From a phage, in sequence record NC_129898.1: a DNA stretch of 64,000 nucleotides; one strand, written 5' to 3'. A program made the position numbers and the translations under genes. Shown piece after piece: positions 43,628-50,082 of the stretch; the stretch's first letter is position 1, and the number at the start of each line of letters is the position of its first letter. The notes below the pieces were generated by a model. It saw nothing but the letters and a program-made list of their open reading frames with translations. It did no database searches and had not been told where the DNA came from.

Positions 43628-44038
43628 ATGGTGTCTCCTTTATGTTGTTCAAATAAAATCGGAGATTCCACAATGGAACAAATGAACGATCAAGCGTCGG
43701 TTGCGATGAACGAGCAAGAACAACCTCAAGACTTTTTCTTAGGGTTAAGCAAAGATCAAGTGTCTCTTCTGTTGGTACTTTCTTCTTTCATGGGGAGACT
43801 TCAGGAGCTTACACAACAACCGGAGGCTGAACAGTTATTTCAGGCCCTGCGTGAAGAAGAAAAATATCGTCGTTTGGATTATGCCTTAGGTTGGGTAGCT
43901 CAACAACGAGATATGCTAATGGCCCTTTCTGGGACAACAAGTTTTGCAATGGGACTGTTGGCTCAAGTCCAGGACAAATTAATTCAGGCAGGGTTTGCAA
44001 ACACAGCGACCACTAACGAAGAACAAGGAGACAAATAA
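43628..44038 (+). CDS. hypothetical protein
   Basis: 136-aa ORF after RBS AGGAGA. Confidence 0.5.
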   Translation: MVSPLCCSNKIGDSTMEQMNDQASVAMNEQEQPQDFFLGLSKDQVSLLLVLSSFMGRLQELTQQPEAEQLFQALREEEKYRRLDYALGWVAQQRDMLMALSGTTSFAMGLLAQVQDKLIQAGFANTATTNEEQGDK

Positions 44039-45309
44039 TGAGCGTTATTCAACAATTCACCAACCCGATGAATCCGCGTGAAACTGTTTTACTGGCTCAC
44101 GGTATGATTAAACGTGTCAGCATCAAGCCTATCAAAGGTGCTGATCCTACAACAGGTATTAAAACCACTGTGTGGCAAGGTAAGAAAATCGAGTCCAGTC
44201 ACACCATCTCTTTACTGATTTCTGAACTGGATTCTTCTGATAACCTACTTCAAGGTGGTGAAGAAGTTTGGATCAGCATGGGTGATAAATTGCTCAAACC
44301 CGGTCATCAAGATTCCGTCTCTGTTAAAATTGATGACAAGTGGGAAACAGTAACGCCAGGATGGATCGTAAATATCCCTTTAAAGGCAAATGAGCATAAC
44401 GGTAAGACCTACTACAAAGGCTCATTGGCTAAAATGGTTAAGCTGGGGGCAGGAGATGCTCCAGCAGCCCCACAGCAACAAAAACAGCAACAAGGCACAC
44501 AATCACAAGGCCAGAAGCAGAAACCTCAGCAGAATGCCAATCAGGACGTTTTACGCATCTATGGTGATGTGACTCAGATTGTTGGTAACGTGGTTACTGT
44601 CAATGACCACAAGATTGGCGAAGGTGCTATGGTTGTCTCCGATGAGCAGCTTAAAGACCTGGTGGTTGGCGGTCGTGTTGCAGCTATTGTTGACAAAGAC
44701 ACCGGGAATATTATCAGCGGCTTCAAGGCCTACCCGCCTAAAGCAGAGAACGGTACACAAGGTTCTGGTGGTAAGCGTAAATCCTCTTACGACCCCATCG
44801 GTGTAGAGACAGGGCACAGTATCAATGCGTTGCAGATCATTCTGGATCGCGGGTTTAAGATTGACAGTCCTTTAGATGTGGCTAAAACACTGCACGTGGT
44901 CACCATCGAGCTTAAGAAAGAGTACGCTCAAGCCACCAACCGAACTGAAGATGAAGTAGGTGCCAGTGTTGGTAATGCGGTATTGAACGCTTGTCGCCGT
45001 ATTGACAAGAAGACGAAAGTTGATGATTTTGCAGTAGCAATTACTGCAGAGGCAAAAGATGTCTTGACTAATCTTGCTGAACCGTTGTATGATTGGATCA
45101 AGAACGGTGCTGGAGCCACTGACCATCAAGAGCCTCAAGCTGCCAAACAGGAAGCCTCCCCACAGCAAAACACTGTAGACGCCCCTCCTGTAGATGATGC
45201 GGAAGATGACCCAATGGATCAGAATCCAGCACAGTATGACTTCTGTGATGACATACCTTTCGCTCCGGTGGGTTTGCAATATGGCAAAAGTAGAATCCAC
45301 GCATTGTAA
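44038..45309 (+). CDS. putative DNA-binding protein with Gln-rich linker and SSB-type acidic tip motif (DDIPF)
   Basis: 423 aa; low-complexity [25 protein letters not shown] linker; DFCDDIPF at 45247-45261 resembles the SSB C-terminal tip but is followed by 15 more codons. Confidence 0.35.
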
Positions 45310-45904
45310 GAGGTGCATCAAGTGCGGAGAGGTGAAAAACCTCTCCGAGTTCTACAAACACCCAAAGATGTCTGACGGTCATCTTAATAAGTGCAAAGAG
45401 TGTTGTAAGAAGGCCAGTAGGGAGGCTGACCAGTTTTCCCACGACTCTTCAGAAAAAGGTGTAATACGCGTGTTGTACAAGGCTCAAAAGTGCAACAGCA
45501 AGCAAAGAGGTCACCCTCCTCCGACTTACACCAAAAAAGAGTTTAAGGAGTGGCTATACCTGAACGGTTACAAAGAGTTGTATGACCAGTGGGTAGCCAG
45601 CGGATACGACAAAAGGAAAAAGCCCTCTTGTGACAGGATAGATGATTTCAAAGGGTACTCTTTTGATAATATCCGTTTAACGACCTGGGGAGAAAATAAA
45701 GACAAGCAGACGGAGGATATTCTGTTGCATAGAAGCACCAGCGGTAGACGGTGTAAAAATGTAAGGAGGTTGGACATGAATGGCAACGTTCTTAAAGAAT
45801 GGGTATCCCACAATTCTTGTAGAAGAGAAACCGGAATATGTGTTGATTACTACATTCATGAAAAAATTCCAGCTCCCGATGGATACCTCTATGAATACTT
45901 TTAG
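45281..45904 (+). CDS. HNH-family homing endonuclease-like protein
   Basis: ATG 45281 (track begins at 45194); N-terminal CxxC...CxxC cluster; motif [25 protein letters not shown]; overlaps the 3' end of the upstream gene. Confidence 0.55.
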
Positions 45905-46745: not shown

Positions 46746-47171
46746 ATGACCTATGAAATGCCAAAACTGATTCGTGATGATGCCCAAAACGCTCACACCA
46801 TTATTATGGGCAAACGCATGGATATTATTTGTCATAAAGATTTCTGGGAAGGAAGTTACTTCACAGAGTATTTTGGTAAACTGGACAATGGTCTGCTGAT
46901 CCAGTTCTACACCGATGCGGAAAACAACATTCACTGGGAGTTCGAAACTGAAGATATCCATAAACTTTTCACCTTCCTCGGTATCAAGGTTGAGGCCAAG
47001 TTTGAAGAAGGTGAGTGCGACGATTGTGGATTCTACGAGGTAACAGATTTCTATCTTCCGAGTGGTGAGAACCTTTACTATGAAAGCCACTTCGGTAACT
47101 CTAATATGCCACAGAGCTGGACTGAGTTTTTTGAAATTGTGGAAGAGGAGCTGGCATATCGTGATTATTGA
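46746..47171 (+). CDS. hypothetical protein
   Basis: 141-aa ORF; stop overlaps the macro-domain gene start. Confidence 0.5.
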   Translation: MTYEMPKLIRDDAQNAHTIIMGKRMDIICHKDFWEGSYFTEYFGKLDNGLLIQFYTDAENNIHWEFETEDIHKLFTFLGIKVEAKFEEGECDDCGFYEVTDFYLPSGENLYYESHFGNSNMPQSWTEFFEIVEEELAYRDY

Positions 47172-47619
47172 TACTGTAGAGGGAGATTTAATCTCCCTTT
47201 TTAAGAGCGGCACTGGTCACCTGATCCACGGTTGTAACTGCTTCCACACAATGGGTAAGGGTGTAGCAAAACAGATTGCCCGTGAGTTCCCTCAAGCATT
47301 GGAAGCTGATAAAACGACTACCTACGGTTGCCTAAGTAAGCTAGGTGCGTTCTCTCGGTGGGAGCACTTATCTCCGAAAGGTATTGTATACGGAATCAAT
47401 CTGTACACTCAGTTCTACCCAGGGCCTAATGCTGAATATTTCTCAATTCTGAAAGGCTTTGAGCGAGTCAATGAGATATTTAAGGGATCGACTTTACCAT
47501 TCTACATCCCTAAGATTGGGTGCGGCATAGGCGGCTTGAAGTGGGGACACGTGGAGGACGTTATTAACCTTGCCACTTTTGATATAGATATTATCGTGGT
47601 GGAGTACAAAGAGTGTTGA
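47161..47619 (+). CDS. macro-domain protein (ADP-ribose binding / ADP-ribosyl hydrolase fold)
   Basis: GTG 47161; EGDLISL...LIHGCNCFHTMGKGVAKQI aligns with macro-domain N-terminal motifs (GD..., AAN...GGGV); IPKIGCGIGGL matches the phosphate-binding loop. Confidence 0.6.
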   Translation: MIIDTVEGDLISLFKSGTGHLIHGCNCFHTMGKGVAKQIAREFPQALEADKTTTYGCLSKLGAFSRWEHLSPKGIVYGINLYTQFYPGPNAEYFSILKGFERVNEIFKGSTLPFYIPKIGCGIGGLKWGHVEDVINLATFDIDIIVVEYKEC

Positions 47620-47673
47620 CAGCAGGATTTTGAGGTGGTATAGTCACCACAACGACTAAGACAGGGGAACACT

Positions 47674-47868
47674 ATGGAGACTAAAATCTTAATTCTAGCT
47701 GTGATAGATACAACAGAAGGAGCCATGTTTGAATCTGCAGGAGGGTATTTCTACCTGCCCTCTGGAAAAAGAACTTCCGAGCCGAGTAAAGATTCAATCC
47801 TTAAAGTGTTCCCGTGTGCTTTCTGGCTGGAGATTCTGATAGAGGATTGCAGAGGATTGGGGAGATAA
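47674..47868 (+). CDS. hypothetical protein
   Basis: 64-aa ORF. Confidence 0.4.
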   Translation: METKILILAVIDTTEGAMFESAGGYFYLPSGKRTSEPSKDSILKVFPCAFWLEILIEDCRGLGR

Positions 47869-47870
47869 TT

Positions 47871-48065
47871 ATGAGAAACAAGAAAGAGCTTTACTCTGGA
47901 GAGTGGATCAACGATCAACAGGTCGGAGAGGTAACCTGCTTCCGGTGCTTTACTCGGTACAATCTTAAAACTGCACCAAAAAGTGTTCCAAAGACTGATG
48001 GTTATTACATAAAAGAACCTCATTGCCCAAAATGCAAATGCCGATTATACTGGAGTAACCTGTAA
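47871..48065 (+). CDS. small zinc-ribbon protein
   Basis: ATG 47871 after RBS GGGGAGA; CxxC...CPKC motifs. Confidence 0.5.
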   Translation: MRNKKELYSGEWINDQQVGEVTCFRCFTRYNLKTAPKSVPKTDGYYIKEPHCPKCKCRLYWSNL

Positions 48066-48128
48066 AAGGTTGACATCTGAAAACTGCAGTATATAATACA
48101 AACATAGACTAGCAGAGAGGAACAAATT

Positions 48129-49116: not shown

Positions 49117-49454
49117 CAGAGATCATCATTTCAACTGCAGGGTATGTATTCCTGACAATCATTGCGCTGATCATCTTGGTGGTGGTGTATGGATTTGTTA
49201 TCCTGCCTATTCTTGAGACATTTAGTTTGTGTCGGTGTTGGAGAAAGGCTTACGGACCACAGCCGTGGAAAGACTGGCCTCATCTGTTACGCATAGCGTT
49301 CTCCTATGCCTATGATCACTCCAGCAGTGCATGCATAACTGGGTACCACGCCCACAATTGGAACTGGGAAGGGTTGGGGAGATGGAATGTTACAAAGACT
49401 ATACCTCTACGCATGTACAAAGGAAAAGGTGGGATTGATGGGAATACCTGTTAA
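49113..49454 (+). CDS. membrane protein
   Basis: 113 aa with N-terminal transmembrane-like segment YVFLTIIALIILVVVYGFVILPIL. Confidence 0.45.
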   Translation: MTEIIISTAGYVFLTIIALIILVVVYGFVILPILETFSLCRCWRKAYGPQPWKDWPHLLRIAFSYAYDHSSSACITGYHAHNWNWEGLGRWNVTKTIPLRMYKGKGGIDGNTC

Positions 49455-50082
49455 AGACAGAAAAGTATGTGGTCGTGGAGTAAACGATTTAAAAGACAAA
49501 GTCCCAATGTACCAATCTGTTAATGGTAAGAGAGTACCAGAACCCCACTATGCTACATGGAAAGCATTATTCCAGAGGTGCTACGGCGATAACTCAAAGT
49601 ACCATACAGGTTGTGAAGTTGTAGAAGATTGGTGGTTGTTCTCAGAATTCTGGAAATGGATGGATACACAAGAGTGGAAAAGAGACGCTAAGAAGTTCAC
49701 TCTTGACAAAGATCTGAAAATCCCTGGAAACAGAATATACTCCCCAGAAACATGCATGTTTGTTCCACCACAAATAAACACCCTATTTGGCATAAGACAG
49801 GCAGCACGAGGGGATTTACCTTTGGGTGTGACACTTAGAAAAGATGTAAACAAGTATCTCGTGCATTGTCATCGAGATGGAAAAATTGTTCATGGCGGTC
49901 ATTTCGATGATCCACAGACAGCACACAAGGTGTGGCAAGAAATGAAACTTGAGGAGATGAAACTTCAGGCTATTAAAAACAAAGATGAGATTTGGCTGTT
50001 CGCCATTAAACGTGCAATAACTATCCTTGAGAATGATTTGAAAAATAATAAGGAGACTATAACATTGGTGAAATTTATTTAA
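49438..50082 (+). CDS. AP2-domain protein, putative HNH-AP2 homing endonuclease
   Basis: ATG 49438; C-terminal GVTLRKDVNKYLVHCHRDGKIVHGGHFDDPQTAHKVW resembles the AP2 DNA-binding domain; N-terminal W..F..RCY...GC.V...W.FSEFWKWM motif. Confidence 0.5.
   Translation: MGIPVKDRKVCGRGVNDLKDKVPMYQSVNGKRVPEPHYATWKALFQRCYGDNSKYHTGCEVVEDWWLFSEFWKWMDTQEWKRDAKKFTLDKDLKIPGNRIYSPETCMFVPPQINTLFGIRQAARGDLPLGVTLRKDVNKYLVHCHRDGKIVHGGHFDDPQTAHKVWQEMKLEEMKLQAIKNKDEIWLFAIKRAITILENDLKNNKETITLVKFI

Follow-up and report, generated by a model that had tools for sequence, protein, structure and literature searches.

The toxin of the DarTG2 defence system ADP-ribosylates thymidines in single-stranded DNA (ssDNA). Phage T4 without adfA and adfN is still resistant to DarTG2 (Johannesman et al., PMC11825919), as would be expected if a further factor were present, and this gap has been filled by tk.4, the single significant gene depleted under DarTG2 in a T4 transposon library analysed by HIDEN-SEQ; a clean tk.4 knockout sensitised T4 to DarTG2, and the gene was named adfM, for anti-DarT factor Macrodomain (bioRxiv 10.1101/2025.11.20.689424). 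The name AdfM is also used for gp104 of the chimallivirus PhiKZ, which clears DNA of the ADP-ribose that DarT2 installs and shields the phage from DarTG2 (Cell Rep 2026, PMC13309987). Here we analyse a gene for a stand-alone macrodomain protein in a 64,000-nucleotide (nt) stretch of sequence record NC_129898.1 (the window), which comes from a Vequintavirus, an rV5-like Escherichia coli myovirus. We consider it probable that the product of this gene is an orphan antidote, which would strip DarT2 marks from replicating phage DNA.

The gene and the signals around its start are the following.

47161–47619, plus strand: macro gene, GTG start and TGA stop, translated into a stand-alone macrodomain protein of 152 amino acids (aa; 152 codons plus stop)
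47145–47150, plus strand: Shine-Dalgarno-like GAGGAG, read from the sequence, 10 nt 5′ of the macro GTG and within the end of the upstream gene
47161–47171, plus strand: 11-nt overlap (GTGATTATTGA) between the macro start and the stop codon of the upstream gene (TGA, 47169–47171)

The program-called open reading frame (ORF) of the macro gene is longer at its 5′ end, beginning at 47062. We take the GTG at 47161 as the start because it is preceded by GAGGAG, because the same GTG is the start in all eight vequintavirus orthologues examined, because the resulting N-terminus pairs without gaps with that of T4 Tk.4 (MIIDTVEGD versus MIVKYIKGD), and because the gene boundaries are identical in independent GenBank annotations. 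Orthologues of the gene are T4 tk.4/adfM, rV5 gp204 and bas54_0092. The 11-nt overlap is likewise annotated in HMD-6, I29, rV5 and the BASEL phages, and it makes translational coupling to the upstream gene plausible. An earlier reading of the DNA, made from the sequence only, had named macro-domain motifs in the 152-aa protein and coupling to the gene upstream. All three motifs are present, at residues 7–13 (EGDLISL), 26–39 (NCFHTMGKGVAKQI) and 116–126 (IPKIGCGIGGL); for the coupling, the overlap stands, and the coupling itself is plausible to likely.

Alignment of the window protein with T4 Tk.4 (152 versus 155 aa) gives 40% identity and 64% similarity over the full length (pairwise E 1e-41). 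Both are tagged PHROG 335, which the window protein matches over its full length (E 2e-59), and the motifs HGCNCFHTMG, NLYTQ and P-[KR]-IG-x-GIG are identical in the two. The T4 gene was identified by its synteny (regB-vs.1-vs-tk.4-tk.3-tk.2-tk.1-tk), where it follows vs and precedes the three small ORFs that lead up to tk. The nearest relative outside the vequintaviruses is the Krischvirus Tk.4, which lies in the canonical slot after regB and vs and shares 67% identity with the window protein and 44% with T4 Tk.4; because it bridges the two, the window protein falls within the diversity of the T4-like Tk.4 proteins. As judged from these alignments, the window gene is an orthologue of T4 tk.4. 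Annotation points the same way in part, with the rV5 orthologue labelled "tk.4: phosphatase" in RefSeq and a homologue in Aeromonas phage 25 also labelled tk.4; other record labels for such genes are "macro domain protein", "O-acetyl-ADP-ribose deacetylase" and "Poa1p-like". Like bas54_0092, T4 tk.4 is non-essential on E. coli K-12. The two genes differ in their setting, T4 being a member of the Straboviridae and the window phage of the Vequintavirinae, with the T4 gene next to vs and the window gene putatively coupled to an acidic ORF; T4 is the only one of the two phages in which resistance to DarTG2 has been traced to the gene.

Homologues were detected by tblastn in 2,821 of 50,697 phage records, a count in which some more distant macrodomains close to the E-value limit may be included. 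Neither tblastn nor a profile hidden Markov model (HMM) detected a homologue in T5, the standard DarTG2-sensitive phage, while positive controls worked; this is consistent with the antidote model but anecdotal. Similar macrodomains also occur in Marseillevirus-like giant viruses (BFVD A0A481YV05 and A0A481YRS7; 38% identity, template-modelling score (TM) 0.93), where SNF2-type and uracil-DNA-glycosylase modules are joined to them by fusion; such a setting, of DNA repair or chromatin, fits a class with substrates linked to DNA.

Profile and structure searches agree with the sequence-only reading that the protein is a macrodomain. The Pfam Macro family (PF01661) is matched above its cutoff (27.4 bits versus 22), over residues 22–53 only; that this 32-residue match marks a partial domain was ruled out by full-length profile and structure searches. 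A profile of the phage family matched solved macrodomains over the full length (E 1e-15 to 5e-18), and the AlphaFold2 model of the protein, with a predicted local distance difference test score (pLDDT) of 96.2 and a predicted TM (pTM) of 0.91, displays the three-layer α/β macro fold, its ADP-ribose cleft lined by two glycine-rich loops. Both loops are conserved in the alignments. The protein is thus a complete, confidently folded macrodomain, with a similarity to known members far beyond chance. By sequence and by structure it is nearer to the ALC1/TARG1-like class (TARG1, DarG, SCO6735, BT1257, Poa1p) than to the MacroD, viral or PARG classes. Its best Foldseek match is TARG1 (TM 0.78–0.85), and DarG was its sole match among 5,027 PADLOC models (E 7e-13) and among 18,950 NCBIfam models.

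The predicted active site is built from four segments.

47227–47238, plus strand: codons H23-G24-C25-N26; H23 and N26 correspond to SCO6735 H24 and N27, and N26 to the catalytically important Asn22 of Thermus aquaticus DarG (PMC9411070, PMC13309987)
47251–47262, plus strand: codons M31-G32-K33-G34, the first glycine loop (MGxG) of the ADP-ribose cleft, placed by alignment
47398–47412, plus strand: codons N80-L81-Y82-T83-Q84; Q84 aligns with Gln85, essential in SCO6735, and with the catalytic lysine in DarG (K80) and in TARG1 (K84) (PMC9411070)
47509–47535, plus strand: codons P117-K-I-G120-C-G122-I-G124-G125, the glycine-rich phosphate-binding loop; G124 stands in the column of the TARG1 catalytic Asp125

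Gln84 occupied the catalytic-lysine column of DarG and TARG1 in every alignment made. Across 77 diverse homologues, N26 and Q84 never vary, and H23 is kept in at least 90%; in the first glycine loop G34 is invariant, with M31 and G32 nearly so. The motif N-x-[YI]-[TG]-Q recurs in T4, Pakpunavirus, Felixounavirus, Certrevirus, a Cellulophaga phage, a Klebsiella jumbo phage and a Lysinibacillus phage, and N26 and Q84 are invariant across these seven phage lineages. H23, N26 and Q84 match the His24/Asn27/Gln85 active site of SCO6735 from Streptomyces coelicolor, which outpaces DarG and TARG1 in freeing ssDNA of thymidine-linked ADP-ribose, ignores guanine-linked ADP-ribose and rescues E. coli from DarT; its Q85A and N27S mutations abolish hydrolysis of ADP-ribosylated thymidine (PMC9411070). 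Read from these alignments, the active site is SCO6735-like, not DarG-like. The resemblance to the SCO6735/BT1257 subclass has limits: identity is about 25%, the subclass is defined by a mobile loop that exceeds that of DarG and TARG1 by five residues, and SCO6735 is a cellular, DNA-damage-inducible protein, not a viral one. Neither the window protein nor T4 Tk.4 or Krischvirus Tk.4 has this five-residue insertion (HGMKT), so the phage proteins form a subgroup of their own.

Despite the library match, classing the protein as a DarG was rejected on score, single-domain architecture, the missing lysine and the lack of a darT neighbour. Against the DarG2 equivalog NCBIfam NF048014 it scores 43.3 bits, compared with a cutoff of 250, and matches profile positions 3–143 of 338. 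Unlike the DarG2 proteins of T. aquaticus, Mycobacterium tuberculosis and enteropathogenic E. coli (EPEC; PDB 5M31/5M3E/5M3I), it has no C-terminal DarT-binding domain; the catalytic lysine (K80 in T. aquaticus, K54 in EPEC) is replaced by Gln84, and there is no adjacent darT, the neighbours being small phage ORFs. When the C-terminal domain is removed, the macrodomain of EPEC DarG still takes ADP-ribose off ssDNA and still saves cells from DarT (PMC7003065), so a lone macrodomain should be sufficient.

Among phage proteins, PhiKZ AdfM is likewise a stand-alone macrodomain of the DarG-like class. It retains, however, the DarG-type catalytic pair N23/K78 (PMC13309987), where the window protein has glutamine in the lysine position, and it is imported into the phage nucleus, whereas V5-like phages have no nucleus. 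This difference in the catalytic pair suggests that the two groups of phage AdfM differ in chemistry and origin, and the chimallivirus and T4-type proteins are probably independent captures that share a name. AdfN, the phage NADAR orphan antitoxin against DarTG1, which occurs in some Vequintavirinae (Bas60-62), offers a parallel in that it too is the enzymatic half of a host antitoxin without the toxin; it differs in having an unrelated NADAR fold and in being specific for guanine-linked ADP-ribose and inactive against DarTG2 (PMC11825919).

We propose that the product of the window gene is an ADP-ribosyl glycohydrolase of the Tk.4/AdfM family, an orphan enzyme resembling an antitoxin, which would be expressed with the early and replication genes. 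Its target would be the ADP-ribose that host DarT2, the toxin of DarTG2, writes onto thymines in single-stranded phage DNA, at TCT/TTT motifs in E. coli. The enzyme would bind the ADP-ribose and then cleave it off, restoring DNA that can be replicated and transcribed, such that the phage escapes the abortive defence. Catalysis would most likely be lysine-independent, as in SCO6735: Gln84, held by Asn26, is predicted to position the distal ribose, while a backbone-activated water would do the chemistry, unlike in the lysine mechanism of DarG. The sequence-only reading had suggested that a phage macrodomain could reverse DarT-type ADP-ribosylation, and this is supported by the orthology to T4 Tk.4, the DarG library match and the SCO6735-type active site.

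Several points weigh against this proposal. Identity to T4 Tk.4 is only 40%, and the T4 evidence is purely genetic and from a preprint. In the literature found, no V5-like phage was tried on DarTG2, Bas54 and its insertion library included. Glutamine takes the place of the catalytic lysine present in DarG and in chimallivirus AdfM (K78), so that the suggested mechanism draws by analogy on a 25%-identical Streptomyces enzyme, which moreover carries a five-residue mobile loop that the phage proteins do not have. The protein is slightly acidic (isoelectric point (pI) 6.2), with no clear basic DNA-binding character in its overall composition. The class is promiscuous, acting also on Glu/Asp-ADP-ribosylated proteins, uracil-ADP-ribosylated RNA, O-acetyl-ADP-ribose and ADP-ribose-1″-phosphate, and a survey has argued that phage macrodomains mostly target small ADP-ribose derivatives (PMC9503650).

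The macro gene has the marks of an accessory gene, one under selection yet dispensable. The ratio of non-synonymous to synonymous divergence (dN/dS) among orthologues is about 0.1. In HIDEN-SEQ, bas54_0092 tolerated insertions at all 31 of its 31 TA sites on K-12, a host free of DarTG, and showed no significant change in the clinical-isolate comparison. In phage V18 (KY683736.1, 1916–2670) the gene is a pseudogene with two internal deletions of about 65 nt and about 150 nt, the second of which takes the glycine-rich loop, while the upstream gene and the downstream promoter are intact; a truncated fusion of the upstream and macro proteins, P0017, is present on another 135-kb contig.

The gene also lies in an island of divergence. 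Relative to rV5, nucleotide identity is 78% in the island (74–86% over 47161–47760) versus 93–100% in the flanks, with the boundary exactly at the macro start codon. Between vequintavirus subgroups, synonymous divergence (dS) is about 1.2 for the macro gene versus about 0.2 for the adjacent upstream gene. This pattern suggests replacement by a divergent allele, that is cassette exchange, rather than relaxed constraint. A wider proposal, which we put forward tentatively and regard as possible but somewhat doubtful, is that the Tk.4/PHROG 335 proteins are a distinct group of lysine-independent nucleic-acid base de-ADP-ribosylases (Gln-type, SCO6735-like and short-loop), separate from the Lys-type chimallivirus AdfM and from DarG2, and that their gene is a cassette traded between phage lineages, with Krischvirus as the nearest outside relative, in an arms race with DarT2 variants; their range might reach uracil-ADP-ribosylated RNA.

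Other activities of the class can be weighed against the antidote. An unlikely one is the processing of small ADP-ribose molecules, in which the protein would be a Poa1p-like ADP-ribose-1″-phosphate phosphatase, an O-acetyl-ADP-ribose deacetylase downstream of a phage Sir2-like enzyme, or a degrader of immune signals. Poa1p is among the top matches and has a very similar N-terminal motif, and it is the source of the legacy "phosphatase" label; of the Poa1p residues H23 and S30 (mutants PDB 6lfs and 6lft), the histidine is present in the window protein and the serine is replaced by T30, in our own mapping of the register onto the mutant names. Some homologues, among the phage records matched, adjoin genes for the salvage of nicotinamide adenine dinucleotide (NAD), and at another place in its genome rV5 carries genes for a Sir2-like protein, an RNA ligase and a pyrophosphohydrolase. 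However, the Sir2-like gene is unlinked, some 50 kb from the macro gene in rV5, and in T5 such genes occur with no macro homologue, so a partnership between the two is not supported. No other ADP-ribose or NAD domain was found in the window by Pfam search (E ≤0.001) of its 72 ORFs of at least 80 aa, among the 25 families listed. The degradation of nucleotide-derived immune signals had been the alternative offered by the sequence-only reading; for Thoeris or another system it finds no support here, the macro domain of ThsA being distant.

Removal of ADP-ribose from proteins (Glu/Asp-linked) or from RNA (uracil- or phosphate-linked) seems quite unlikely; such marks would stem from host ADP-ribosyltransferase (ART) toxins or defences other than DarT2, or from phage enzymes. 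TARG1 and SCO6735 hydrolyse Glu/Asp-ADP-ribosylated proteins, and uracil-ADP-ribose on RNA is reversed by TARG1, DarG and SCO6735 (PMC13036486). Human TARG1 (OARD1), the top Foldseek match, shares the class of the window protein and cleaves thymidine-ADP-ribose in DNA as well as uracil-ADP-ribose in RNA. It is, however, a eukaryotic enzyme with protein-Glu substrates, and the Lys84/Asp125 dyad that serves these protein substrates is missing from the window protein (Q84 and G124). SCO6735, for its part, strongly favours DNA over protein in competition. The mRNA ADP-ribosyltransferase system CmdTAC robustly restricts T-even phages despite the presence of Tk.4 in T4, which suggests that the Tk.4 family does not neutralise the CmdTAC RNA mark. 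The Pfam search of the window revealed no ART domain among the families listed, and a phage-encoded ART whose marks the macro protein would regulate was therefore set aside.

Non-catalytic action, by binding and blocking DarT2 or another ART or by sensing or sequestering ADP-ribose, is very improbable: although the canonical catalytic lysine is missing and the dead variants SCO6735 Q85A, DarG K80A and TARG1 K84A inhibit DarT in vitro, SCO6735 the most strongly (PMC9411070), the H23, N26 and Q84 constellation and the two glycine loops stay unchanged between very distant phage lineages, as expected for an enzyme, and EPEC DarG sequesters its toxin through the C-terminal domain that is absent here, macrodomain-DarT binding being weak (PMC7003065).

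The macro gene lies in a long same-strand run that begins with rIIB, helicases, primase and DNA polymerase and continues with dozens of small ORFs; the locus is matched by 119 phage records, most at 90–96% identity. Around the gene we distinguish the following features.

46746–47171, plus strand: upstream overlapping gene, encoding a very acidic 141-aa protein (pI 4.3, net charge −20; PHROG 8157)
47616–47644, plus strand: near-consensus sigma-70 promoter TTGACA-17-TATAGT (11 of 12 matches, extended −10 TG), overlapping the macro stop codon and conserved in V18
48070–48097: second near-perfect sigma-70 promoter, TTGACA-16-TATAAT, between small genes and conserved in V18

The promoter at 47616–47644 sets the 3′ limit of the unit and probably drives the small genes downstream. 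Many such sigma-70 promoters are present in the rV5 annotation, which suggests that host RNA polymerase transcribes the entire block. Early or middle expression is suggested by the order of the genes and the type of promoter.

The acidic upstream protein has invariant C29, C91-x2-C94 and His residues. It has no match in Pfam, PADLOC or NCBIfam, only in PHROG, and its AlphaFold2 model was unusable (pLDDT 44). Outside the vequintaviruses the gene occurs only in Krischviruses, at 36% identity and in an unlinked position. A role as functional partner of the macrodomain, for example as a substitute for the DarT-binding domain, was rejected on this narrow distribution and on the lack of a family match; the idea is further weakened by the nearest outside macro homologue having a different upstream neighbour. 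The arrangement of the two genes is lineage-specific, not a conserved partnership. As speculation, the upstream gene may be a separate host-takeover or anti-defence gene, or may encode a DNA mimic.

Downstream, 47814–48065 (probable start ATG at 47871) encodes a small protein with the phage zinc-binding domain PF23903 (E 2e-22). The rV5 curators noted that the PF23903 protein, Tk.4 and two neighbouring genes all resemble proteins of RB49, a Krischvirus, which suggests a shared pool of accessory genes between vequintaviruses and Krischviruses. An ORF of 231 aa at 49387–50082 is an HNH homing endonuclease (PHROG 953, E 5e-65) and an insertion relative to rV5, the rV5 alignment falling there to 15–48% identity; I29 annotates no gene of similar size at this place. 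Further upstream, an endonuclease VII-like or homing-endonuclease ORF at 45194–45904 (PHROG 1035, E 2e-41) overlaps by about 116 nt the 3′ end of a 423-aa gene at 44038–45309, whose orthologue bas54_0087 (PHROG 4477) scored as essential in HIDEN-SEQ. Elsewhere in rV5 (NC_011041.1, 68070–68831 and neighbours), a cluster comprises the Sir2-like NAD-dependent gp080, the RnlA-like RNA ligase gp078, the nucleotide pyrophosphohydrolase gp081 and the phosphoesterase gp076, and this cluster may be an NAD/ADP-ribose or RNA-repair module. Among the records matched at the locus, 16 unannotated "Campylobacter phage" entries (MG065635–MG065677, host Campylobacter jejuni) share about 93% identity with E. 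coli vequintaviruses, and their host or organism labels look doubtful.

The macrodomain itself is already annotated in many records, and an anti-DarT2 role for phage macrodomains was published in 2025–2026; what is modestly new here is that all of the Tk.4 family share a Gln-type active site, and that there is evidence for cassette exchange. A widespread T4-type AdfM family without the DarG catalytic lysine and with the Gln/Asn constellation of SCO6735 bears on inhibitor design, and also on the annotation of thousands of phage "phosphatase" genes. If our proposal is correct, a ready DarTG2 antidote would be carried by V5-like phages, which are popular candidates in phage therapy and in the biocontrol of E. 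coli O157, and this would help to predict their host range on DarTG2-positive pathogenic E. coli.
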